In this document: one piece after another, positions 1,804 to 34,145 of the stretch
Layout: every line of letters begins with the position of its first letter
How positions within the stretch are numbered: position 1 is the stretch's first letter
From: Candidatus Woesebacteria bacterium GW2011_GWB1_38_8b
GTDB taxonomy: Bacteria; Patescibacteriota; Microgenomatia; UBA8517
Direction of reading: 5' to 3'
Length of the DNA stretch: 43,633 nucleotides
Assembly: GCA_000993115.1 (NCBI GenBank)
Contig: LBVN01000003.1
Span: forward strand, 1 to 43,633
The notes under the pieces: generated by a model
Database searches by the model: none
What the model saw: the letters and a program-made list of their open reading frames with translations, nothing else
Told to the model about the DNA's origin: nothing
Program-made: the position numbers and the translations under genes

Positions 1804-1857
1804 TTCTAAATTCTATCATTCATACAAATACGTCGATATATTTGCTAATATGAATTG

Positions 1858-4320
1858 ATGGAATTTTTAGCGTGGCATTACAGTTTTGGGGTAAATTATT
1901 ACATTGAAAGCTGGATGCGACAGTTCAAATGGATCCGCCATTATTTTTCACTCCCTTTACTTCTACGGACTCTTTTTGCTCCCTGGAAACGGATGATAAT
2001 GTCTGATAATAAGCCCGGATTTGATCTTAACCGATTTTTTCAGACGCTGACTTTCAATATGGTTTCCCGTATTGTCGGAGCGGGAGTGCGAATCACTCTA
2101 TTTTTTGTAGGAATTGTTCTACTAGTTGTAACTTTTTTTGCTGGTGTTTTCGGATTTATATTTTGGGTTTTAATCCCATTTTTTTCGTGGCCTGTTTATA
2201 CAAAATACAATAAAAGACCTGATATTGTTATGCGGGACTTGATGTTTAAAGTTAAAACTACAAGGGATAATCCTTTGCAAGTTTTATTTAACAGTGAACC
2301 GGGATTATTTTTCTTAAATCATTTAGGACTTTCGTACGACTCTTTATCTTCTGCCATAACTTCTGACAAGCTTGATTTAAATAATTTAGCTGCAAAGAAT
2401 TTTTCTGATGTGGTGAATTGGTTTTTGGAAAAAGGGTCATTTGAAGACGAGAGACTACGAAAGTTGGGACTTGTCAAAGAAGATCTCATAACCGTTGCAA
2501 AAATGTGGGATAAGAAAAAAGAGGACGAGTCTTTTTTGGGAAGCGATGAATTAGGGCGTCCGAGCATCGGTTTGGAAGTTCTTTTCGGTTATACTCCGAC
2601 ACTTAATCAATATTCAACCGATCTTTCGGCTCCGCAATCTTTTTCTCATAGGTTAATCGGGCGAGAGGAAATTGTGAATCGAATGTATAGAGAGCTTTCT
2701 GTTGACAGAAGTATTGTTTTAACGGGGGATCCGGGAGTTGGGAAAAAGACGGTGGTGTTGGAGTTTGCGAACCGTGCAGCAACCGGAAAATTCGGGAGCA
2801 AAATGGCATATAAGCGGGTTTTGGAATTTGATTACAATTTTATTCTCTCCGAATCAATGGATATTAACAAGAAAAAAACCCAGCTTACCCAAATTCTTGA
2901 TGAAGCGGCATATGCCGGAAATATAGTACTTATGATCCGCGATCTTCACAGGTTGATTCACTCCGATGTTGAAGGCTTTGATTTTACGGATACTTTTGAA
3001 GCTGCTATGGGACGGGGTGAACTTAAAATTATTGCCGTTGCTACGAATGTTGAATACGAACGCTTTATTGCTCCAAACTCACGACTTCGAAAATATTTTG
3101 AACGGATTGAAGTAACACCTCCATCGAAGGAACAAGCTTATGAAATTTTAGTTGAGTGGGCAAAAACCTTGGAGATCAAAAAGAATCTGATAATTGAGAT
3201 AACGGCACTTCGTAAAATTCTAAACGAGTCTGACCGCTATATTACAGACACTCCTTTTCCTGAAAAAGCCCTGGAGTTACTCGACGCGGTAGTTACTTTT
3301 GTTGAAGAAAGTAAAAAACAGGTAGTTGAAGCTGATGATGTTAATGCAGTATTTGCCGAGAAAACAGGTATTAGTTTGGCACGCTTAACTTCAGAAGAAA
3401 AAACAAAATTAGGGGACTTGGAAAATATAATTCATGAGAATTTAGTAGATCAGGAGTTAGCTGTAAAGCAAATCGCACAGAGTTTGCGTGCAAAAACATT
3501 GGGGGTTTCCGAAAACAAGCGTCCTATCGGATCATTTCTTTTCTTGGGCCCGACCGGAGTCGGAAAAACCGAAACGGCGAAAGTATTGGCAAAAGTTTAC
3601 TACGGCAGCGAGGAACAAATCCTTCGCTTTGATATGGCGGAATATGCAGGGAAAGAGGGGTTTGAGCGGTTAATCGGCTCGCAAGGTAGAAACACACCAG
3701 GTGCATTAACTACTGCTATAAAAAATAAACCTGCAAGCCTTCTTTTACTGGACGAATTTGAAAAAGCCTCGAGAGATATTTTTAATTTATTTTTGACGGT
3801 TCTGGATGAAGGTTATATCACAGATGCTTTCGGAAAAAGAGTTGGCGCGGGAAATCTATTTATTATAGGGACTTCGAATGCCGCTGCTGAATATATAAGA
3901 AAACTTGTCGGAAGCGGCATCCGTGGGGAGGAGCTACAAAAAAGTGTTGTAAATTTTGTTTTGGAAAATGCTATTTTTACGCCTGAGCTTCTAAATCGTT
4001 TTGATGGGGTGATTGTTTATGAACCTCTTGAGGGACCGGAATTAAAGAAGGTAGCAAAATTAATTTTGGATAAATATGCAAAAAATTTGAAAAATAAAGG
4101 AATTATACTAAATGTTACCGATTCTTTGATAGAAAAATTAGCAACTGATGGTTATGATCCGGCATTTGGTGCCCGCCCAATGAGAAGAATAGTCGATTTA
4201 GTAATTTCTGATTTGATTGGGAAAGAAATGATTTCAGGAAATGTCGCAGACGGTGACTCGATAGATATAATTCCCGGTAGCGGTAAAGAAGAATATAAAG
4301 TTGTTAAGAAAACCGGTTAA
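1858..4320 (+). CDS. Membrane-anchored ClpA/B-family double AAA+ ATPase
   Basis: N-terminal hydrophobic helices; NBD1 GDPGVGKK; FPEKALELLD; NBD2 RPIGSFLFLGPTGVGKT, DMAEY, LLLDEFEK, PELLNRFD, FGARPMRR. ATG 1858 preferred to TTG 1855. Confidence 0.9.
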   Translation: MEFLAWHYSFGVNYYIESWMRQFKWIRHYFSLPLLLRTLFAPWKRMIMSDNKPGFDLNRFFQTLTFNMVSRIVGAGVRITLFFVGIVLLVVTFFAGVFGFIFWVLIPFFSWPVYTKYNKRPDIVMRDLMFKVKTTRDNPLQVLFNSEPGLFFLNHLGLSYDSLSSAITSDKLDLNNLAAKNFSDVVNWFLEKGSFEDERLRKLGLVKEDLITVAKMWDKKKEDESFLGSDELGRPSIGLEVLFGYTPTLNQYSTDLSAPQSFSHRLIGREEIVNRMYRELSVDRSIVLTGDPGVGKKTVVLEFANRAATGKFGSKMAYKRVLEFDYNFILSESMDINKKKTQLTQILDEAAYAGNIVLMIRDLHRLIHSDVEGFDFTDTFEAAMGRGELKIIAVATNVEYERFIAPNSRLRKYFERIEVTPPSKEQAYEILVEWAKTLEIKKNLIIEITALRKILNESDRYITDTPFPEKALELLDAVVTFVEESKKQVVEADDVNAVFAEKTGISLARLTSEEKTKLGDLENIIHENLVDQELAVKQIAQSLRAKTLGVSENKRPIGSFLFLGPTGVGKTETAKVLAKVYYGSEEQILRFDMAEYAGKEGFERLIGSQGRNTPGALTTAIKNKPASLLLLDEFEKASRDIFNLFLTVLDEGYITDAFGKRVGAGNLFIIGTSNAAAEYIRKLVGSGIRGEELQKSVVNFVLENAIFTPELLNRFDGVIVYEPLEGPELKKVAKLILDKYAKNLKNKGIILNVTDSLIEKLATDGYDPAFGARPMRRIVDLVISDLIGKEMISGNVADGDSIDIIPGSGKEEYKVVKKTG
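2259..2279. repeat. Degenerate copy of the RAYT-associated palindrome, inside the Clp ATPase CDS
   Basis: tacaagggat-a-atcctttgca; 2 differences from a perfect palindrome; reads TRDNPLQ in frame. Confidence 0.55.
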
Positions 4321-9806: not shown

Positions 9807-10925
9807 ATGTTAAGGACTATTAAACCCAAATTTTTTAAATATAAAAACGGGAAGCTTCCTTTGCCTGTATTTTTTCCTGACGCTACAAGGGCAGTTATAA
9901 GATCTCTTGATACGAGTGATTTGGAAGCAACGAAAACTAATGGAATATTGGTCAATACATTTCATCTTTGGAAAGATATGAATAAAAACATATTGTCAAA
10001 GGCCGGCGGAATAGGGCCATTTATGGATTTTGACGGGGCGATCATTTCCGATTCAGGAGGATTTCAAGTTGGGAGTATGATCAAGAAAAATCCAGGGGTG
10101 GGATATGTTGACGACGAGGGTGCTCATTTTAAAATAGACGGGAAAAAAGGATACCTCACACTAACTCCGGAAGACTCCGTTCGTTTTCAGATGGAATTGG
10201 GTAGCGACATGGTCGTAGTTTTGGACGATTTTGACGCGCCCGGTGCAGCTGAAGATGAAAACATGGAATCGGTAAAGCGAACAATTTTGTGGGCAGAAAA
10301 ATCTAAAAAAGAATTCGAAAATATTTGTGTAAAGAAAAAGCTTACCAAAAAAAACCGGCCTTATATTCTAGGAGTGATTCAGGGAGGAAGATATAAACGC
10401 TTACGGAAGTATTGTATAGATGCCTTGGTTGATTTGGGATTTGATGGCTTCGGCTACGGGGGAGAGGAAAAAATTAAGGGGATGGTTAATCACGATATAT
10501 CAAAGTTTGTTGCAGACAACACCCCTGGTGGACTATTGCTTTATGCCCTTGGAGTAGGAAAACCCGAAGATATAGTAGCTCTGTCTAAGCTAGGTTATAC
10601 GATATTTGATTGCGTACTTCCGACCCGTGACGCGCGGCATAAGCGAATGTATGTTTATAATGCGGACTCAATTGAAGAAATTAATATCAAAAGCCCTGAT
10701 TTTTACTCATTTTATACACCAGATAAGACAAAATACCTTGACGATTTAAGCCCTGTTTCGAAAGCTTGCGATTGTGTTACCTGCACGAGATATTCAAGGG
10801 GCTATCTTGCGCATTTGTTTAAAATCGGAGATTTTACAGCCGGAAGGCTGGCAACAATTCATAACCTGCGTTTTTATTCAATTTTGATGGAAAAAATTAG
10901 GGAGCAAAATAGGAGTAGGAAGTAG
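9807..10925 (+). CDS. tgt: tRNA-guanine transglycosylase
   Basis: NTFHL, DSGGFQ, VIQGG, FDCVLPTRDAR, Zn site CDCVTC...HNL. Confidence 0.9.
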   Translation: MLRTIKPKFFKYKNGKLPLPVFFPDATRAVIRSLDTSDLEATKTNGILVNTFHLWKDMNKNILSKAGGIGPFMDFDGAIISDSGGFQVGSMIKKNPGVGYVDDEGAHFKIDGKKGYLTLTPEDSVRFQMELGSDMVVVLDDFDAPGAAEDENMESVKRTILWAEKSKKEFENICVKKKLTKKNRPYILGVIQGGRYKRLRKYCIDALVDLGFDGFGYGGEEKIKGMVNHDISKFVADNTPGGLLLYALGVGKPEDIVALSKLGYTIFDCVLPTRDARHKRMYVYNADSIEEINIKSPDFYSFYTPDKTKYLDDLSPVSKACDCVTCTRYSRGYLAHLFKIGDFTAGRLATIHNLRFYSILMEKIREQNRSRK

Positions 10926-13948: not shown

Positions 13949-14953
13949 ATGCCCTTAATTTTAGAAGTAAAAAATATAGCAAAAAAGTTCGGCCGCATTG
14001 TTGCACTTCGTGATATTGATTTTAAGATTGATGAGGGTGAGTTTGTTTATATTACCGGAGCTTCGGGTGCCGGAAAGACTACACTTCTTAAATGTATTTT
14101 GCGCCAAATTTATCCGGATGCAGGGGAAATTATTCTGGACGGGAATGATATTGCAAAATTACCCCGAAAAAAAATACCTGAACTTCGGCAGCAAATTGGG
14201 GTTGTTTTTCAGGATTTCAAAGTTCTTCCGGAGCGGACAGTTCGGGAAAATGTTGAGGTAGCACTGGCTGTAATCGGCCTTCCGAAAAAAGATTGGGACG
14301 CAAGGGTTGATCATGTACTTCATCTCGTCGGGCTTTTTGACAGATCGGAACTTTTCCCAAATCAACTTTCCGGAGGAGAGCTACAAAGAGTATCACTTGC
14401 ACGGGCTTTAGTTGTTAATCCAAAAATTATATTGGCTGATGAGCCGACAGGAAATCTTGATTGGGAAACGGCAGATAAAATGATTGAGCTTTTTAATCTT
14501 ATTAATCATGAGGGGAAAACCATAATTATGGCGACTCACAATATGCAGGTTGTAAAGAAGTATAAAAAAAGGACGATTGAGCTGAAAGATGGGGTGGTTT
14601 TTAAAGACATGGGGGTTGAGATTGAGAGAGAGATTGAGAGTGAGCAAAAGAGGGATAAGGAAGAGGAGAAAAACGATGATAAAATCGGTGAACAATTAAA
14701 CGTAGTTGATGAGAGTGCAGCACAGAAGCCCGAGATTTTGGAAGGCGTTAATACAGAAAAAGTTGGATTGGAATCACCACCTGTTTCTCGCCCCGTTGAC
14801 GATTTACCGCCAAGCCTGGACGTGGCAAAGCCGGATGAGGAAGAACCAAAAGCAAATGACGTAGATAAGATAATTGAACACGCGAAGAAAAAACACAACA
14901 AGAAAAAATTAAAAAAGAAAAAGAAACCAGCTGAAGTTACTGGTATGGCATGA
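13949..14953 (+). CDS. ftsE: Cell division ATP-binding protein FtsE with long charged C-terminal tail
   Basis: GASGAGKTT, IGVVFQDF, LSGGE.QR, ADEPTGNLD; upstream of ftsX. Confidence 0.92.
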   Translation: MPLILEVKNIAKKFGRIVALRDIDFKIDEGEFVYITGASGAGKTTLLKCILRQIYPDAGEIILDGNDIAKLPRKKIPELRQQIGVVFQDFKVLPERTVRENVEVALAVIGLPKKDWDARVDHVLHLVGLFDRSELFPNQLSGGELQRVSLARALVVNPKIILADEPTGNLDWETADKMIELFNLINHEGKTIIMATHNMQVVKKYKKRTIELKDGVVFKDMGVEIEREIESEQKRDKEEEKNDDKIGEQLNVVDESAAQKPEILEGVNTEKVGLESPPVSRPVDDLPPSLDVAKPDEEEPKANDVDKIIEHAKKKHNKKKLKKKKKPAEVTGMA

Positions 14954-14965
14954 TACTCTTTAATT

Positions 14966-15886
14966 ATGGGTAATCAATTTAAAACAGCTTGGAAGTCTAT
15001 AAGAAGATCGCCGTTTCAGGCGATGTCGGCAATTTTGGTATTATCGATTACTTTTTTTGTAATCAGCACGTTGGCCGTACTTACTTACTCGTCCGATAAA
15101 ATACTTCAATATTTTGAGACAAGGCCGCAAGTAATTGCATTTTTAAAATCCGATGCAGCTGATGCTGATATAAACGCTCTTTCCGATAAGCTCAAAGTAG
15201 ATTCTCGGGTATCGAAAGTTACATTTGTTTCAAAAGAACAGGCACTGGAGATTTATAAAAAGGCAACAGAGGAAAATCCATTGTTGTCAGAGTTGGTGAG
15301 CCCGTCGATATTCCCTCCAAGCATAGAATTATCTTTGACAGATTTGAGTTTTGCCCAGGAAGTAATCACAGATATTAAAAAATATCCCGTAATTGATCAG
15401 GTTGGCTTTACCGCAAGTTTGGGAGGGGAAAAAACTCTTGATGATGTTATCAGCCGTCTTCGAAAAGTAACGTTTTATCTTCGTGCCGGAGGCGCGGCTT
15501 TCGCTATTCTTTTGGCATCGACATCATTTTTAGTTCTTATGATAATTATAGGGATGCGTATGACTGCCAGGCGTGGGGAAATTGAAATACTGGAGTTAAT
15601 CGGAGCAACCCCCGGTTTTATCAGAAGCCCAATAATAATTGAGGCGATTCTATATTCGGTGATAGGAGTTTTTATGGGATGGTTTGTGTCGCTTCTTCTG
15701 ACACTTTATACAACTCCGACATTGGTATCTTATTTTAAAGATATTCCGATTCTACCCAAAGATACAATGTCGCTTCTCCTTTTATTTTTAGTATTATTTG
15801 CGGTTGAAATCTTGATTGGATTTATTCTTTCTCTTACGGGCAGCTATTTGGCTGTTTCAAGAGCGAAGAGTAAGAAAAAACGATGA
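14966..15886 (+). CDS. ftsX: Cell division permease FtsX
   Basis: 4-TM pattern, FVSKEQAL, RRGEIEILELIGAT..FIRSP. Confidence 0.92.
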   Translation: MGNQFKTAWKSIRRSPFQAMSAILVLSITFFVISTLAVLTYSSDKILQYFETRPQVIAFLKSDAADADINALSDKLKVDSRVSKVTFVSKEQALEIYKKATEENPLLSELVSPSIFPPSIELSLTDLSFAQEVITDIKKYPVIDQVGFTASLGGEKTLDDVISRLRKVTFYLRAGGAAFAILLASTSFLVLMIIIGMRMTARRGEIEILELIGATPGFIRSPIIIEAILYSVIGVFMGWFVSLLLTLYTTPTLVSYFKDIPILPKDTMSLLLLFLVLFAVEILIGFILSLTGSYLAVSRAKSKKKR

Positions 15887-17067
15887 CACGAAAAATTACA
15901 CTTCTTCTTTTTATTTTCTTTTTCGCGGTTTTTTATAGCCAACAAGTCTCCAATACCGGATTTAATGGAAAAGTGCTGCTTGCCCAAAGCGAAGAAGAAA
16001 AACTTACAAAATTAAAAAATGATATTGAGCAGTACGAGAAAGAACTTGCACGATTAACGAGTGCTGCCAGTACTTTGCAGAACCAAATAGCTCAATTTGA
16101 TACACAAATAAAACTGACGCAGCTTAAAATTGCACAAACAGAAGAACAAATTAACCTGTTGGGAGGACGGATTGACCGGCTTGGCGAATCTTTGACTTCC
16201 CTGACCACCGCTTTTAACGAAAGGGCTGTCCAAACTTACAAAATGGCAATCTTAGGTCAACCATTGTATTTATTGGTAACTGCTCCGAATTTGAATCAGG
16301 CAGTATCAAGTTACCACTATCTCAAAAGAATCCAAAATGACGATATGGATTTGCTTAATAGACTTCAAAACGCCCAGGACCTTTATAAAACCCAAAAGAC
16401 CGATCAGGAAAAATTACAAGCCGACCTTGAGAAACAAAGGGCAAATTTGGCGTCGCAAAAAAATGCTAAGGCCTCGCTTTTGACGCAGACTAAAAATGAC
16501 GAGAAAAAATATCAACAGTTACTCGCTTCCGCAAAGAGCGAATTTGAAGCAATCCAGGCAATTATTTCGGGTCGGGGTGAGGAAGAAAAGGTAGGGCCTG
16601 TTTCTGCAGGTGCGAGAATCGCTTCAATTATTGACGGACCATCTTGTAACTCCAGCGGGAGGCATACACACTTTATTGTAAAAGATGGGGCGAATGTTCA
16701 AAACCCATTTTCGTATCTAAAACCCGGAATTGATTTTGAAAATTGTTCGGGAAGTAGTTGCGGAAGCGGCGATGGGGACTCATTTAATCCAGGAGGGAGT
16801 TGGGATTGGCCGATTAATGCAAAGGTGAAATTTACACAGGGGTACGGTTCCACTTGGGCTGTAAGAAATACTTGGGTTGGTCGGGTATATTCATCTCATA
16901 ATGGAATCGATGTTGACAGTGCATCAAGCACAGATATAAAAGCAGTAAAAACAGGTACGCTTTACCGTGGATCTTATTCAGGATCGGGTGGATGCAGACT
17001 TCGTTATGTCCGCGTTGATCACGACGATTCAGAAATCGAAACTTATTATCTTCATGTGAATTACTGA
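15883..17067 (+). CDS. Coiled-coil (EnvC/PcsB-like) murein hydrolase with circularly permuted M23 domain
   Basis: Signal peptide, long coiled coil, HTHF...NPFSYL followed by WP...HNGID...TYYLH; overlaps ftsX by 4 nt. Confidence 0.8.
   Translation: MTRKITLLLFIFFFAVFYSQQVSNTGFNGKVLLAQSEEEKLTKLKNDIEQYEKELARLTSAASTLQNQIAQFDTQIKLTQLKIAQTEEQINLLGGRIDRLGESLTSLTTAFNERAVQTYKMAILGQPLYLLVTAPNLNQAVSSYHYLKRIQNDDMDLLNRLQNAQDLYKTQKTDQEKLQADLEKQRANLASQKNAKASLLTQTKNDEKKYQQLLASAKSEFEAIQAIISGRGEEEKVGPVSAGARIASIIDGPSCNSSGRHTHFIVKDGANVQNPFSYLKPGIDFENCSGSSCGSGDGDSFNPGGSWDWPINAKVKFTQGYGSTWAVRNTWVGRVYSSHNGIDVDSASSTDIKAVKTGTLYRGSYSGSGGCRLRYVRVDHDDSEIETYYLHVNY
17035..17067 (+). repeat. Direct repeat copy 1 (3' end of the M23 gene)
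   Basis: atcgaaacttattatcttcatgtgaattactga; 29/33 identical to 18178-18210. Confidence 0.85.
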
Positions 17068-17103
17068 TTAGTTAGAACCGACAATAATCTGTTTTATAGT
17101 GTA

Positions 17104-17126
17104 CCCACAAGGGATAATCCCTTGTA
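17104..17126. repeat. RAYT-associated palindrome (REP-like)
   Basis: cccacaagggataatcccttgta; 22/23 match to the reverse complement of 34123-34145. Confidence 0.85.
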
Positions 17127-17178
17127 TAACCTTTTAATTTATTTCTTAGCCTCAAATTCTTTATTAATAAATCCTTAG

Positions 17179-18147
17179 TTGAATGTGCTAGAATCAGCGG
17201 CATTGGGAATTGAACAGCAGAGATATCAAATTGACAAAGATAGAGCTAAATCGGTAATAGAAAAAGCTTTAGCAGGACGGGAAGCGAGAACTGGTTTTTT
17301 TGCGACTAACTTTCAACCGGAAAAACCGTTTATTGAGATTGCACAAAAATATGGCATTCAGACCAATAATGAGGCGTTTTGCTTAAATGCGCTGTTTATG
17401 ACAACGCCATTTGTGATTGCACAAAATACGGGGCAATTTTTTAATCGAATAACAGATGCAAAACTGTTAAACGATTACGCATGGATTTTTGATCCGAGTA
17501 CTGCCATAAATGAGACTACTTCGGATCCTAATGGGGTATTAAGGAAGGCATGTTTAGACTATTTTAGACCTGCTGGTTATAGTGTTAATGCACTGGGCCA
17601 ATGGATGCACAACTTGAGTGTACTAAATGAAAAACACCAAGGTGATATTAGAAATTTTTTTAGGGAGTGCGAAGACGATGCAGTAAAAGTTGTCGACGCT
17701 CTAGTTGTACGCCCGAGGGCAAAGAGCAGCGAAAAAACAGGCTTCAGGCGGTATGGCCCTAAACTTGCCAGACTATTTGTTCAATGGGTTAACCAGTATG
17801 AATTATATGTTCTAAAAAACTCAGGTGAAGTTGGGGTACCCGTTGATTTTCAGATAGCGCGAGTGTTAATTCAGACTGATGCAATACCGCTTAGTGAGCC
17901 AGTACAAGCTCACACAATTACACATAAAGTGTTACTTCCTATGTTTACTGAATTGTGTAACGAGAATGGATTTAAACCACAAGAGGTATCTGAAGCATTG
18001 TGGACGATTGGAAGTGTAGGGTGTAGCAATAGAAGACATGAAGATTGCCCGGTTGCATCATTGTGTAATAGAATGATATCAAGAAATCCGTATGATAGGG
18101 GAGGAATGTTTGATCCTACAGATGTAGGAAGGTTTAAAAAACAGTAA
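17179..18147 (+). CDS. HhH-GPD superfamily DNA glycosylase-like protein with C-terminal Cys/His cluster
   Basis: YGPKLARLF (HhH), VPVDFQIARV (catalytic Asp position), ALWTIG..CSNRRHEDCPVASLC; start uncertain (TTG). Confidence 0.65.
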   Translation: MNVLESAALGIEQQRYQIDKDRAKSVIEKALAGREARTGFFATNFQPEKPFIEIAQKYGIQTNNEAFCLNALFMTTPFVIAQNTGQFFNRITDAKLLNDYAWIFDPSTAINETTSDPNGVLRKACLDYFRPAGYSVNALGQWMHNLSVLNEKHQGDIRNFFRECEDDAVKVVDALVVRPRAKSSEKTGFRRYGPKLARLFVQWVNQYELYVLKNSGEVGVPVDFQIARVLIQTDAIPLSEPVQAHTITHKVLLPMFTELCNENGFKPQEVSEALWTIGSVGCSNRRHEDCPVASLCNRMISRNPYDRGGMFDPTDVGRFKKQ

Positions 18148-18177
18148 CAGACTGGTTCAATTTTAGTAACTAGAAAT

Positions 18178-18210
18178 ATTGAAACTTATTATCTTCATGT
18201 AAATTATTAA
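18178..18210 (+). repeat. Direct repeat copy 2 (orphan 3' end of the M23 gene)
   Basis: attgaaacttattatcttcatgtaaattattaa, also encodes IETYYLHVNY*. Confidence 0.85.
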
Positions 18211-18256
18211 ATATCGCATGGAAAAACTTCTGAAAGTTGTGATATAACTTGATTTA

Positions 18257-19117
18257 ATGAAACGATTGAAGTTTGGTTATACTCTTTCATTTATTGTGTT
18301 TTTGTTTGTCATTTGCACAAAACCAACAGCAGCACAGGTTGTGATTAATGAAATTTCTGTCCAGCCTGCTGATAAATATGATTGGGTAGAGTTATTCTCT
18401 CCTACTCCCGTTGACATATCAGGTTGGAAAGTTGGTGATGAAGCTGGAGTATTTGAGACAATTCCACAAGGGACACAATTGGGGCCTAACATTTATTTCG
18501 TTGTAAGCCAATATCAGCGATTGGATAATGAGAGTGACACAGTTATTCTCTATAACAACAGCGATGTTGAAATTAATAAAATTATTTATGGAAAATCCAA
18601 TAGTGTGTGCGTCTCTTCTGAAACAGGCTCGATAGCTAGAATTCCCGATGGTGGGAATACAATTGACAGATTGGCTTCTAACACAAAAGGATCCAGTAAT
18701 GGGGAGTTGGCTACCGATCCCTGTCCCACTCCAACTCCGGTCCCGACCAACTCACCTACAAATGTTCCAACGAACACACCGACAAACTCCCCAACTCCTA
18801 CCCAGAAACCCTCAAATACGCTTACACCTACGGCAACCAAAAAACCGACCAATACTCCAACAGAACCGGAAGAATCTCCGGCCGAAGGTGACGAGTTGGT
18901 ATTGGGTTCGACGGATCCTCTTTTAAGCTCAACACCAATCCCAACCGAAACTTCGGAAAATGATAACGGTGGCAAAAATTTCCCATTTGTTCCGGTATTG
19001 TTTATAATCTTAGGAATAGGTTTTATTGGTAGCGCGGTTTTTCTTGTACTTAAAGGCCGGAAAGAAAATTTAAAAACTTTGGAAAATGTCGAAAAGTTTA
19101 CAAGACAGGATAATTAA
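18257..19117 (+). CDS. Secreted lamin-tail-domain protein with Pro/Thr linker and C-terminal TM
   Basis: Signal peptide; VVINEI...DWVEL...DISGWKVGD...LDNESD; PTN repeats; TM followed by basic tail. Confidence 0.8.
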   Translation: MKRLKFGYTLSFIVFLFVICTKPTAAQVVINEISVQPADKYDWVELFSPTPVDISGWKVGDEAGVFETIPQGTQLGPNIYFVVSQYQRLDNESDTVILYNNSDVEINKIIYGKSNSVCVSSETGSIARIPDGGNTIDRLASNTKGSSNGELATDPCPTPTPVPTNSPTNVPTNTPTNSPTPTQKPSNTLTPTATKKPTNTPTEPEESPAEGDELVLGSTDPLLSSTPIPTETSENDNGGKNFPFVPVLFIILGIGFIGSAVFLVLKGRKENLKTLENVEKFTRQDN

Positions 19118-19520
19118 ATTTACAAAATATTGGTTTCCTGCTATTGTGTGGGCGTTTGTTATTTATTCTTTTTCTTCAAATCCAACCGGACGTGCAAGTG
19201 AAATCCACTGGGAAGATTTTGTTATTAAGAAAAGTGCACACTTGTTTGTTTATTCCGTTTTAACAGTACTTTTATATAGGGCATTTTATAATTACCAACT
19301 GGGGGAAAAACTTTCAGCTAAATATACATTAATAGTAAATGTTTTATATGCGATTTCCGACGAGTTTCACCAAGGTTTTACTCCGGGGCGCGACCCTACA
19401 CTTCGTGATATTTTAATAGACTCCTTTGCAATTATTGTTGTACTTTACCTGATAATTAAGTATTTACCGATGGCTCCAAAGGCGGTTAGAACCTGGGCAA
19501 AAAAATTCGAAATCGCATGA
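19086..19520 (+). CDS. VanZ family membrane protein
   Basis: KSAHLFVY, YAISDEFHQ.FTPGR....DILID. Confidence 0.9.
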   Translation: MSKSLQDRIIKFTKYWFPAIVWAFVIYSFSSNPTGRASEIHWEDFVIKKSAHLFVYSVLTVLLYRAFYNYQLGEKLSAKYTLIVNVLYAISDEFHQGFTPGRDPTLRDILIDSFAIIVVLYLIIKYLPMAPKAVRTWAKKFEIA

Positions 19521-20521
19521 AAAAAATTTTAGTCACCGGCGGGGCAGGGTATATTGGTTCGGTTGCAACGTACCTTCTTTTGCAAAAGGCCTACGAAGTT
19601 GTAGTTATAGATAATTTTTCGACCGGACATGAGGAAGTCTTAAAATTCTTCAATACAAAATATCCCAAGAACTTTAAATATTACAAGGCTGATCTTCAAA
19701 AGAGGGAAACTATAAAAGAAGCGTTAGATAAAGAAAAAGAATTTGACGCTGTTCTTCACTATGCGGCAAGTTGCTTGGTCAATGAATCAATGGAAAATCC
19801 GGCAAAATATTTTACCAATAATGTAATAGGTTCACAAAATCTTTTTTCGGAACTTATCGAGCATAGTATTAAAAACATAGTGTTTTCATCCACTTGTGCC
19901 GTTTACGGTGAAGCGCAATACGTTCCGGTTGATGAGAAACACCCGACAAATCCGGCTAATCCATATGGAGAAAGCAAAAGAATGATTGAGCTTATGCTGC
20001 AGTGGTATGGAAAATTGGGAAAACTCAATTATGTAATTCTGCGATACTTTAATGTTTGTGGAGCAAGCGATGACGGTGAAGTCGGCGACAGTAAAGATCC
20101 TTCTGTACTTCTTATGCAAAACGCTGTCCGCGGGGCTTTGGGAATCGAGTCTTTTTATCTTACTTGCCCTGAAGTTGACACTCCCGATAAAACGCCAATA
20201 CGCGATTATATAAATGTAGTGGATTTAAATGAGGCACATCTTGGTGCATTGGATTATTTAATTAATGGAGGGAAAAGTGAAATTATTAATTTGGGTACTG
20301 GGACGGGAAATTCCGTTTTGGAAATTGTTACAACTGTCGAAAAAATAACCGGGAAAAAACTGGATAGGAAAAAGACTGAGGCAAGAAAAGGGGAATACGC
20401 GAAAATGATTGCGGACACTTCAAAAGCAAAAACGGTATTGGGATGGGAACCCAAAAGAACGATATCAGACTCAGTAAACTCGCTTGTTAAGTGGTATAAA
20501 AATCACCCTCAAGGGTGGTAA
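19517..20521 (+). CDS. galE: UDP-glucose 4-epimerase
   Basis: TGGAGYIGS, FSSTCAVYG, YGESK, LRYFNV, RDYINVVDL. Confidence 0.93.
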   Translation: MKKILVTGGAGYIGSVATYLLLQKAYEVVVIDNFSTGHEEVLKFFNTKYPKNFKYYKADLQKRETIKEALDKEKEFDAVLHYAASCLVNESMENPAKYFTNNVIGSQNLFSELIEHSIKNIVFSSTCAVYGEAQYVPVDEKHPTNPANPYGESKRMIELMLQWYGKLGKLNYVILRYFNVCGASDDGEVGDSKDPSVLLMQNAVRGALGIESFYLTCPEVDTPDKTPIRDYINVVDLNEAHLGALDYLINGGKSEIINLGTGTGNSVLEIVTTVEKITGKKLDRKKTEARKGEYAKMIADTSKAKTVLGWEPKRTISDSVNSLVKWYKNHPQGW

Positions 20522-20565
20522 TAGCACTGGACAATTAGGATTTCACGAGTTAGATTGGTTGGGCT

Positions 20566-21114
20566 ATGATGAGAAGGACTTTTTTATTAATATCCTCTTT
20601 TTTACTATTCACAACACTTGCAGTGGCAGGTAAAAGTATCGAAAAAAACCAATCCAAAATAAGCGTTAACGTAAATTCCAATAATTTATCCACAGAAGTT
20701 TTGTCGGAAACAGATGTAGCCGAATCCACGAATACTCCGACTGTAAAATCTTCAAATACGCCAAGCGTAGAGGAAATTGAAGATTCCGATGAAGCGGAAG
20801 AAGTAACTGCTACCCCAACTTCTACGGCTCCTGTAATCGGGTTTGCAGTAGAAGGCTATATTTATCCCGGATCAGCAGTCATTTCAAAATCCGCAAATTA
20901 TTTAGAGCTTTCAACATCGACTGATGCAAAAACAGTGACTGATTGGTATGAGAAAAAAATTAGAGAAAACGGGTTTAATGTAAAAAGTTTCGTCAGGACT
21001 AACACAAATAATGTAGTTAAAAACGTAATTGCCGCGGCAAATGCAAACGAAGAGTTAAAAATTGAGATTGTAAACCAAAACTCAGGCTCACTAGTAAAAA
21101 TCAATTTCTTCTGA
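20566..21114 (+). CDS. Hypothetical secreted protein
   Basis: Signal/TM, S/T/E-rich linker, YIYPGS...VTDWYEKK domain. Confidence 0.7.
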   Translation: MMRRTFLLISSFLLFTTLAVAGKSIEKNQSKISVNVNSNNLSTEVLSETDVAESTNTPTVKSSNTPSVEEIEDSDEAEEVTATPTSTAPVIGFAVEGYIYPGSAVISKSANYLELSTSTDAKTVTDWYEKKIRENGFNVKSFVRTNTNNVVKNVIAAANANEELKIEIVNQNSGSLVKINFF

Positions 21115-33406: not shown

Positions 33407-33427
33407 TACGAGGGATTATCCCTCGTA
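33407..33427. repeat. RAYT-associated palindrome, directly after the transposase stop
   Basis: tacgagggat-t-atccctcgta, perfect 10-bp inverted repeat. Confidence 0.9.
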
Positions 33428-33624
33428 GTTAATCTTCCAATGTAAACCTTCCTAACAACTCCCTTTCGTTTTCCTTATAATTTTCAACAAATGATTGATA
33501 TGTCAAGATTTTAGATGGAAATTGTGATTTGTCGTTTTGAAACATTTGCAAAATTGGTTTTGGATTTAACCAATCGGGACAATTTATACCAATATAATAC
33601 TTATAGCTTGAATATTTGTATTTA

Positions 33625-33645
33625 TGCAAGGGATTATCCCTTGCA
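33625..33645. repeat. RAYT-associated palindrome inside the transposase CDS
   Basis: tgcaagggat-t-atcccttgca, perfect; reads ARDNPLH. Confidence 0.9.
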
Positions 33646-33913
33646 AGCAGCTCACTTGGATTAAGATGAATGTATCTTGATAAGTGAAGGAAATAGGATT
33701 CATCCAAGATAAGGACCGCTTTATACACACCCTGAAACAGCCTGCCGGTTCTTTCATAAGTTTTATTAAAATACATAGAATAGTTTGTTAAGAGAGCTTT
33801 AGAGAACCTTTTTAAACCATATTTTGATTTCTGACGAATAAGTAAATGGAAATGGTTGGGCATAAGGCAGTATGATATGAGTTCAATATCGTCATAACAA
33901 TTTAACGGTTTTC

Positions 33914-33934
33914 TACGAGGGATAATCCCTTGTA
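33914..33934. repeat. RAYT-associated palindrome inside the transposase CDS
   Basis: tacgagggat-a-atcccttgta, one G-T; reads IQGIIPR. Confidence 0.88.
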
Positions 33935-34122
33935 TTTTCAACAAATCTGGATGGTCGATTGGCAGTAAATATTCTTTGAGAAGCCTGAGAAAAACTGAAT
34001 AGTCCAAATCTCTTTGGAAAATCTTTCGTTTATCAACTCCTCGATTATATATGTGGTAGTATCCGCCTTCTATGTAAGTTTTAACTGAGTTTAATGGAGG
34101 CATATTTAATTTTATCATGCGC

Positions 34123-34145
34123 TACAAGGGATAATCCCTTGTGGG
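34123..34145. repeat. RAYT-associated palindrome upstream of the transposase
   Basis: tacaagggat-a-atcccttgtggg. Confidence 0.9.

Follow-up and report, generated by a model that had tools for sequence, protein, structure and literature searches.

The 3' end of an M23 peptidase gene of cell division in Candidatus Woesebacteria bacterium GW2011_GWB1_38_8b, a tiny member of the Candidate Phyla Radiation (CPR) from groundwater, is followed by a segment of 1,143 bp that holds one cargo gene, ORF322 (ORF, open reading frame), together with a single repetitive extragenic palindromic (REP) sequence, and that is bracketed by two synonymous versions of the last codons of the M23 gene. This insertion, located on contig LBVN01000003.1 (assembly GCA_000993115.1) in a stretch of 43,633 nucleotides analysed at its full length and called the window in the following, is real, has been mobile recently, possesses no recombination enzyme of its own and occurs in presence and absence forms in nature. 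The best explanation as a whole, to which we would give an even chance, is that a cassette of REP and ORF322 entered the ancestral junction between the M23 gene and the subsequent Lamin-tail-domain (LTD) gene by crossover in a core shared by both gene tails. The features in question, with positions as counted in the window, are:

15883-17067, forward strand: EnvC-like coiled-coil/M23 gene of 394 aa (Peptidase_M23, E 1.2e-6), complete, with copy 1 of the tail as its 3' end.

17035-17067, forward strand: copy 1 of the M23 tail, attL-like; the last 10 codons and the stop of the M23 gene and its functional 3' end.

17038-17057 and 18181-18200, forward strand: the 20-nt core GAAACTTATTATCTTCATGT, the same in both copies, which contains the joint of the empty allele.

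17058-18200 (equally 17038-18180), forward strand: the segment of 1,143 bp absent from the empty-site allele, its register being arbitrary within the core.

17107-17125, no strand assigned: REP-like palindrome ACAAGGGATAATCCCTTGT with a perfect 8-bp stem and a 3-nt loop.

17179-18147, forward strand: ORF322, predicted to encode an N-glycosylase-like protein of the helix-hairpin-helix (HhH)-GPD superfamily; the start is possibly the GTG at 17185.

18178-18210 (18175-18210 with the shared AAT codon), forward strand: copy 2 of the M23 tail, an attR-like non-coding relic whose own frame is open for only 20 codons.

18257-19117, forward strand: LTD membrane protein gene (LTD, E 5.8e-11), the ancestral downstream neighbour of the M23 gene.

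The recurrence of the M23 tail had been noticed at the first reading of the sequence, and the duplication is confirmed. The two copies are identical at 29/33 bases and lie 1143 nt apart from start to start, while no other ungapped match of the 33-mer on either strand of the window exceeds 21/33. Equally, the core occurs at two sites only in the assembly of 903,868 bases when up to three mismatches are allowed (control pattern, 0 sites). All four differences between the copies (ATC/ATT, GTG/GTA, TAC/TAT and TGA/TAA) leave the peptide IETYYLHVNY and its stop unaltered; the chance that four out of four differences are synonymous is 0.001 under random substitution and 0.012 if transitions only are considered. 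A neutral relic would not gain solely synonymous changes, and it follows that the two tails diverged while both still served as gene ends. In most relatives the M23 protein terminates in the same peptide, ...YYLH(V/I)NY, and the M23 gene of the window is therefore not truncated. From left to right, positions 17058-18200 contain the tail end GTGAATTACTGA and, separated from it by a spacer, the REP; ORF322 comes next, and after it a 30-nt spacer with ATT and the core. ORF322 occupies 969 of the 1,110 unique bases between the copies. The initial statement that no integrase lies between the copies is borne out by the ORF list and by domain searches: neither a recombinase gene nor an integrase fragment was detected, and ORF322 is the sole listed ORF of at least 50 aa. 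The 33-mer tail repeat itself does not fold, both 43-nt boundary stretches reaching -0.1 kcal/mol, worse than 196-198 of 200 shuffles. Two known types of recombination site were considered for the repeat and rejected. A dif/Xer-like site is not recognizable, the 33-mer being without inverted arms in a by-eye comparison with dif consensus sequences; an integron gene cassette is not recognizable either, the boundaries being unstructured and devoid of an attC site, with no search aimed specifically at an integron integrase.

Relatives with an empty site, in which the M23 gene directly precedes the LTD gene, had been proposed as a check and were found. An M23 protein was matched in 39/41 related genomes, this genome included; 29 of the relatives' M23 loci were fetched and examined by tblastn, and the end of the gene was read in 28 of them, locus L027 being excluded as its M23 gene is cut at the contig start. 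The usual order is FtsX-M23-LTD-VanZ, and in many loci, among them L012, L018, L021, L027 and L030, the LTD-type gene starts no more than a few dozen bases past the M23 stop. ORF322 is present in 0/29 of the relatives' M23 loci and a second M23 tail downstream in 0/28, where the best match of 21/33 equals background, so that both are absent from all 28 loci with a readable gene end. A metagenome collection scanned with the back-translated tail peptide yielded four loci. The closest relative seen, the metagenomic locus L043 (M23 73% and FtsX 73% aa identity), shows the order FtsX-M23-LTD-VanZ without an insert. Judged from these sequence comparisons, the empty site is the ancestral state. In six relatives (L009, L010, L011, L014, L031 and L034) another gene, of 147-164 aa and with the motif MxQVSKYP..., is located at or near the M23/LTD junction; L009 has it in broken-up form and L034 as part of a fused 301-aa ORF, and none of these relatives displays a tail duplication. 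With a different gene at or near the same position in six relatives, the M23/LTD junction is therefore a variable, recurrent insertion spot.

Filled and empty alleles also exist in present-day populations. The stretch or part of it occurs in 19 public runs from ten studies, and the contigs of four of these (X5, X13, X14 and X16) were compared over positions 14000-21000 of the window. In run X13, which stems from an independent groundwater study, a contig of 590 nt joins position 17037 to 18181 and skips exactly 1143 nt: it follows 16529-17037 with 1 difference in 509 nt (99.8% alike) and continues for 81 nt from 18181, whereby 20 nt fit both sides. The empty allele thus reads ATC, core, GTA AAT TAT TAA, that is, the left part of copy 1 and the right part of copy 2 on either side of the core, which is what a crossover within the core would produce. 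A contig from the interior of the cassette (17065-17790) is present in this run as well, and filled and empty forms therefore coexist in one sample. In run X5, from a third study, the contigs 16524-17122 and 17699-19551 span both junctions of the filled form with 0 differences. An assembly artefact, named beforehand as an outcome that would undo the finding, is therefore excluded by these independent contigs, and together with a chance repeat, against which the background of 21/33 speaks, such an explanation deserves next to no weight. Logan contigs are built from 31-letter words, so that a 20-nt repeat should be too short to cause a false join. A word share of 0.54 in runs X14 and X15 was considered as a further sign of an empty site and discarded, as it is explained by thin and broken coverage.

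The crossover that we favour would have been a single reciprocal exchange inside the 20-nt stretch that a look-alike on the incoming DNA shares with the chromosomal M23 tail, either as a Campbell-type insertion of a small circle or as an equivalent exchange, following the logic of attB x attP. The incoming look-alike would comprise 33-36 nt of an M23 tail, and as it encodes the same peptide with other synonymous codons, its origin would be in the M23 gene of another, related lineage. The M23 gene would now end in the cassette-supplied codons GTG AAT TAC TGA, while its own last codons, GTA AAT TAT TAA, would have been left as a relic behind the cassette. The reaction may be reversible or recurrent, as the site is filled in some near-identical groundwater strains and a single hybrid in others; the reverse reaction would give precisely the hybrid empty site found in X13. 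As the cassette encodes no recombinase, the crossover would have to be made in trans, either by a tyrosine recombinase, of which the genome encodes two, or by homologous recombination of the host over 20-32 identical nt. ORF322 would be the cargo, an accessory N-glycosylase of the HhH-GPD superfamily. The original prediction of an attL/attR-like scar, in which the incoming DNA supplied a replacement 3' end from a related genome, is in this way supported by the empty relatives, the hybrid joint of X13 and the synonymous nature of the differences.

A cassette of the same build occurs elsewhere in the genome. Among 1,128 ORFs of at least 90 aa in the whole assembly, the last nine residues plus stop were sought again within 8 kb downstream with one mismatch allowed. 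This screen gave five hits, namely two tandem paralogues and three short relics (M23 and those on contigs C19 and C2), with a rough chance expectation far below one. The features concerned are:

Contig C19, L069:1618-2807: second cassette; a DUF2298 gene ends at 1665 and the relic at 2807, a spacing of 1142 nt.

Contig C19, 2195-2458 and 2468-2719: the cargo, a RHH/NikA-like ORF (RHH, ribbon-helix-helix) and a YafQ/RelE-like ORF, toxin-antitoxin-like, both with Pfam matches below cut-off.

Contig C2, L070:874-953, reverse strand: third tail relic, without cargo, behind a 440-aa gene (924-2246) ending in ...FYSALKERVA and stop.

On C19 the tails resemble each other over 48 nt, of which 32 nt form an identical core; the 5 differences between them are all synonymous, and a core run of this kind has a chance of 0.008. 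The C19 cargo is absent in 10/10 relatives' loci, and in 9/10 the DUF2298 gene is succeeded by a convergent LytR gene within ~120 nt. In both cargo-bearing cases the differences flank a central identical core; for the M23 cassette alone, the chance of such a run is 0.076. On C2 the sequence YSALKERVA with its stop is re-encoded 20 nt downstream with 9 synonymous differences in 30 nt; the 440-aa gene resembles by eye an undecaprenyl-diphosphate-synthase fusion. The genome possesses two tyrosine recombinase (Phage_integrase-family) genes, one on C11 (37659-38633, Xer-like by eye) and one on C4 (18971-19873, beside a coupling-protein-like ORF), as well as two serine recombinase genes, all of them on contigs other than that of the cassette. 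Based on the two examples, in which M23 is followed by a glycosylase-like gene and DUF2298 by a toxin-antitoxin-like pair, it can be tentatively proposed, as a rather doubtful generalization, that Woesebacteria, within the CPR, have a class of minimal recombinase-less cassettes of ~1.14 kb, which consist of cargo plus a 33-48-nt synonymous tail look-alike and which would cross over at this look-alike to insert and excise and thereby shuttle accessory genes between strains.

The architecture recalls element e14 and phage 21 in the 3' end of icd of Escherichia coli K-12, where the gene extends into the element, a C-terminal pseudogene (the icdC relic) lies at the far end and the recombination of the two upon excision is visible as parallel synonymous changes (PMC13626634). 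A gene tail as the target, an element-borne tail that keeps the gene whole, a relic at the far end, tails that differ mostly synonymously and an excision that yields a hybrid gene are common features (PMC13626634). Repeats that duplicate the 3' end of the target beside an intact gene and a hybrid empty site are thus found here as well; an integrase of the element's own is not. While e14 is ~15 kb in size with its own integrase and excisionase, the segment described here measures 1.1 kb with one cargo gene, no recombinase and a shared tail of 33-36 nt. The e14-like architecture would be in line with the remnant of a larger integrative element, an island with its own tyrosine integrase in the M23 tail that was subsequently reduced to REP and ORF322 (architecture as in PMC13626634). 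However, the filled and empty alleles of near-identical strains differ by exactly 1,143 bp, the two cassettes in the genome are almost equally small with 1143 and 1142 nt, and integrase fragments are missing in a segment of which ORF322 takes up 969/1,110 unique bases, so that a reduced island is improbable. The tycheposons and their remnants in genomic islands of Prochlorococcus resemble the cassettes in that cargo is placed between a full target gene and a partial 3' copy in streamlined genomes without classical mobile elements, and tycheposon remnants without integrases occur (10.1101/2020.12.28.424599). In contrast, a tyrosine recombinase of their own is the defining trait of tycheposons, which insert at tRNA genes, whereas the targets here are protein genes (M23 and DUF2298) and neither cassette holds an integrase. 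The lack of an element integrase, the one-gene size of 1.14 kb, the protein-gene tail in a CPR bacterium and the recurrence with other cargo at near-equal size set the present case apart from e14 and the tycheposons.

Run X16 provides a view on the recombination history of the locus. Its strain displays 0 differences to the window at 14686-16246 and is also identical at 20351-21000, while differences of 2-3% are found at 16192-16590 (10 letters, 2 gaps), 16652-17002 (10) and 18962-20292 (27), thus spanning the 3' half of M23, VanZ and the next gene with a dense patch at 19301-19491. The two pieces of ORF322 that are covered, 17693-17845 and 17864-18086 (376 nt), show 0 differences. Contig cover of X16 is missing at 17042-17509 and 18212-18445, which leaves the junctions uncovered, and X14 is uncovered in several bins; such gaps are not readable as absence. 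The pattern hints that recombination tracts surround the site and that the flanks had already diverged when the cassette arrived.

A number of observations weigh against a crossover in the core. The empty joint was seen in one contig of one run only, and contigs were compared at a min_likeness of 88, a level that comes with a warning of foreign joints, although this contig differs at 1 position in 509 nt and has 81 nt on its short side. Of the excised and circular junctions that the original prediction suggested to look for, the excised (empty) joint was recovered in X13, but the circular joint, 18177 joined to 17058, is absent from the contigs of X5, X13, X14 and X16, contigs being prone to drop rare forms. 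The empty allele of X13 might just as well have arisen when the segment between the 20-nt repeats was deleted, so that in this population the event may have run in either direction. Copy 2 together with the AAT codon at 18175-18177 matches the M23 end of L043 at 34/36 positions as one contiguous piece, which would be easier to reconcile with a wholly ancestral relic than with a hybrid; as guides to the ancestral tail, L043 and L044 are suggestive, with synonymous sites probably saturated at 42-73% protein identity. The C2 relic, without cargo and without an identical core, does not fit a core crossover. Equally, the precise insertion of an ORF322-family gene in genome G135, described below, is without flanking duplication.

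Homology-facilitated illegitimate recombination, a one-sided homologous import with an illegitimate join, is the main rival. In this case linear donor DNA of a related strain, with REP and ORF322 already behind its M23 gene and homologous to the recipient inside M23, would have been joined illegitimately 33-36 nt before the recipient stop; copy 2 would represent the whole old tail of the recipient, the 3' part of M23 would be of donor origin, and the present empty allele would have arisen by secondary deletion between the 20-nt repeats. Such a process can duplicate part of its anchor. The contiguous 34/36 match of copy 2 plus AAT to the tail of L043 supports it, as do the recombination tracts around the site in X16 (2-3% versus 0 differences nearby) and the presence of three synonymous tail relics at three unrelated genes, one of them cargo-less and core-less, which general recombination explains and a site-specific enzyme does not. 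The mechanism, with foreign DNA placed beside a homologous anchor without an element enzyme, has been described for naturally competent bacteria (PMC3240628). On the other hand, an illegitimate join predicts a random position and evenly spread differences, not a central identical core that holds the joint, and the location of the differences outside the central core in both cargo-bearing cases has a combined chance of <0.01. Furthermore, as far as the core the empty and filled alleles are alike, differing at 1 position in 509 nt, so that this pair has no diverged donor tract upstream. On balance this rival is unlikely, although to be taken seriously; the decayed island discussed above and the homing and REP-assisted mobility discussed below are less likely.

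The classification of the cargo as HhH-GPD-like holds at the level of the fold. A model of ORF322 (AlphaFold, 32 sequences) has a predicted local distance difference test (pLDDT) score of 89.8, and its top Foldseek hits are all Qng1/DUF2419, MutY, EndoIII or AGOG. In an exhaustive structural search Qng1 (7ugk) ranks first with Z 17.4 over 254 residues at a root mean square deviation of 3.4, followed by NTHL1, EndoIII-3, AGOG, EndoIII and MUTYH at Z 12.5-13.8 (EndoIII/NTHL1/AGOG/MutY overall Z 11-14); 21 chains with Z of at least 8 are all HhH glycosylases or Qng1, with a drop thereafter. The neighbours in the ESM Atlas are AGOG-like and EndoIII-like clusters. Invariant in the 32 sequences of the family are K195, D223, C282, C290 and C296, while H287 is present in at least 90%, and the motif PVDFQxxR aligns with PVDTNVGR of ROS1 in a weak profile match (E 0.31). 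The Lys and Asp of the HhH motif in Qng1, K199 and D231, are the only two of its residues that recur in all HhH glycosylases (PMC9881137). K195 and D223, which have the spacing of about 20-30 residues expected for such a pair, would be equivalent to the catalytic Lys and Asp of HhH glycosylases. The likeness to Qng1/DUF2419 and AGOG/EndoIII consists of the two-lobe HhH fold over the full length of ORF322 plus the invariant Lys and Asp in the manner of K199/D231 of Qng1. EndoIII and MutY carry a four-Cys iron-sulfur loop where ORF322 has C-x4-H-x2-C-x5-C; instead of the four-Cys loop of EndoIII, the family thus has three invariant Cys and one nearly invariant His.

By sequence, ORF322 finds no match in Pfam (including PF00730, HhH-GPD), NCBIfam and PADLOC, and nothing meaningful in PHROGs. 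Membership in Qng1/DUF2419 (PF10343) is not reached, with sub-threshold matches in 2/32 members and a best E of 0.067. A word-indexed search found 35 homologues with 39-98% identity, Patescibacteria where named, the closest relatives being P0001 (98%) and P0002 (65%). A profile search of 1.84 billion representatives gave ~50 clusters (50% identity) at E<=1e-30, then a clear gap and 189 at <=1e-10; among the remoter hits 23 were tested, with a match to Pfam AGOG (N-glycosylase/DNA lyase) in 2 of them and to DUF7178 in 1. Near relatives were sought as well in a viral contig collection, with no pattern matches, and in a genome contig collection, where none of the pattern matches was confirmed with the single protein or alignment A2 as query. 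Taken together, the high-confidence fold model predicts ORF322 to be an N-glycosylase-like enzyme of the HhH-GPD superfamily that belongs to an undescribed branch. A tgt gene (tRNA-guanine transglycosylase) is located at 9837-10907, 7 kb upstream of the Qng1-like ORF322, and queA was not found in the 85.6%-complete assembly; with tgt nearby and no queA found, ORF322 might have a role in queuosine salvage.

The family of ORF322 is rare and patchy, being present in 6/139 genomes of the order and 7/401 of the class sample (this genome in each), and its contexts differ. In G135, of genus g89, the gene forms a clean insertion of ~965 nt that separates rplU from rpmA and lies precisely at the stop codon of rplU; the rplU/rpmA junction GATATA/TTAAC is uninterrupted in 4/4 searched congeners. 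A family gene also resides between rplU and rpmA in G022, which belongs to another genus; the two genes (L041:1456-2420 in G135 and L042:1489-2412 in G022) have 34% mutual identity and are convergent with rplU, abutting its stop codon. Convincing flanking duplications were found at none of the five other ORF322 loci inspected (L038-L042). These insertions raise the question of cargo-driven homing, in which ORF322 as a sequence-specific glycosylase/AP lyase would damage the empty allele and repair from the filled allele would copy the gene, the synonymous changes of copy 1 shielding the filled allele. The precise single-gene insertion beside highly conserved sequence in G135, with all four congeners empty, the 34%-identical homologue at the same rplU/rpmA site in another genus, the patchiness of the family, the 376 nt of ORF322 without differences in X16 next to flanks of 2-3% and the invariant catalytic-type Lys and Asp would all agree with homing. 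However, the cargo of the C19 cassette, which is built in the same way, is toxin-antitoxin-like and includes no glycosylase, and the build is hence independent of ORF322. Homing leaves no duplicated tail, as is the case in G135. Furthermore, a homing nuclease domain (LAGLIDADG, HNH, GIY-YIG or similar) was not found in ORF322 with Pfam, NCBIfam and PHROG, and no family member matches a known domain of this type or has Pfam hits. HhH-GPD enzymes are known to be specific for damage or modification and not for sequence, which weighs against homing, and this explanation is decidedly improbable.

The palindrome in the cassette is real and is the same as that which flanks the sole Y1 transposase gene of the assembly, which makes its designation as RAYT-type appropriate; its coordinates are 17107-17125 and not 17104-17126 as first reported. 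The transposase gene resembles a REP-associated tyrosine transposase (RAYT):

33429-34118, reverse strand: RAYT-like Y1 transposase gene of 229 aa, the only one in the assembly (Y1_Tnp 37.5 bits versus a cut-off of 23).

It scores 33.9 bits with the NCBIfam model REP_Tyr_transpos, below the cut-off of 80, and has no match in PADLOC. Copies of the palindrome flank the gene upstream (34124-34142) and downstream (33408-33426), and two further copies are observed within its reading frame at 33915-33933 (...KIQGIIPRRK...) and 33626-33644 (...ARDNPLH...); a degenerate copy is located at 2260-2278 inside an ORF of 821 codons (1855-4320). In this genome the palindrome has 7 forward hits at up to three mismatches (reversed control, 0), of which 5 are strong copies in 0.9 Mb (85.6% complete), namely the cassette copy and four in or around the RAYT-like gene. 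Rather than many dispersed intergenic REP copies, one strong copy was thus found away from the RAYT locus. Across 125 genomes of the family the palindrome is restricted to this genome, apart from one occurrence with a mismatch in one other. As DNA, the cassette REP folds with -7.1 kcal/mol (z -2.9). The lineage specificity of the palindrome means that either the REP entered the spacer after arrival of the cassette or the donor was a close relative; the latter fits the 4/33 differences between the tails.

The suggestion that RAYT assisted the mobility of the cassette is not upheld. In such a process the Y1 transposase encoded at 33.4-34.1 kb would move the cassette via the REP hairpin, and the cassette REP being the only strong copy in the 0.9-Mb assembly outside the four of the RAYT gene, as well as the near confinement of the palindrome to this genome among 125 of the family, would be compatible with it. 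But the cassette has a single REP, located 49 nt in from its left boundary, no second hairpin with a stem of at least 7 occurs near the right end (one hairpin in 17000-18300), and the joint lies in the unstructured tail repeat and not at the REP. Equally, REP-like palindromes were found neither at eight other ORF322 loci nor in the C19 cassette, where a 13/19 look-alike is within chance by rough estimate. Transposases of the IS200/IS605-type Y1 group need hairpins at both ends and make no duplication, and mobilization by REP and RAYT is very improbable. A unit of the IS200/IS605 type or of the palindrome-associated transposable element (PATE) type moved by a Y1 transposase was rejected, a single hairpin and a 33-bp duplication being present. 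With the REP/RAYT systems of proteobacteria (REPINs) the locus shares a Y1/HUH transposase gene flanked by a short palindrome that is found elsewhere too; it differs in its low number of copies (5-6), of which four belong to the gene and its immediate surroundings (two inside the frame), in that no REP doublets were seen and in the missing link to the cassette boundaries.

Upstream of the cassette, the host locus comprises two further genes:

13949-14953: ftsE, upstream of the M23 gene.

14966-15886: ftsX, directly upstream of the M23 gene, with FtsX domains found.

In the region 16900-18400, 7 promoter-like sites of sigma-70 type compare with 4.5 +/- 2.0 expected and are uninformative; terminators were not predicted in this region (0), and the REP fails the terminator rule. 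The M23 gene, the spacer, ORF322 and the relic all share one frame (15883-18210), in which the only stops are TGA at 17065, TAG at 17176 and TAA at 18145; the M23 stop is followed by 36 stop-free codons, with a post-hoc chance of roughly 0.01. The Pfam M23 match covers profile positions 2-53 of 96 and lies at the extreme end of the protein (16650-17067 of the window), and a GRHTHF motif ~70 residues upstream of it resembles the missing second half; the relatives end likewise. The M23 domain may thus be circularly permuted and EnvC-like.

Ultra-small CPR bacteria are thought to be poor in classical mobile elements, yet gene content varies among strains. At the M23/LTD junction one accessory gene has been caught as a natural presence/absence polymorphism with base-exact junctions, which offers a concrete and testable route of gene gain and loss in such genomes, with a short synonymous gene-tail look-alike as the recombination handle. 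Equally, the finding draws attention to an uncharacterised branch of predicted HhH-GPD glycosylases that acts as accessory, repeatedly inserted cargo. If the crossover is driven by the host, it would bear on gene exchange in streamlined genomes without dedicated machinery, and if the tentatively proposed class of cassettes exists, it would constitute a gene-cassette system that works without an integron, a transposase or an element-borne integrase.

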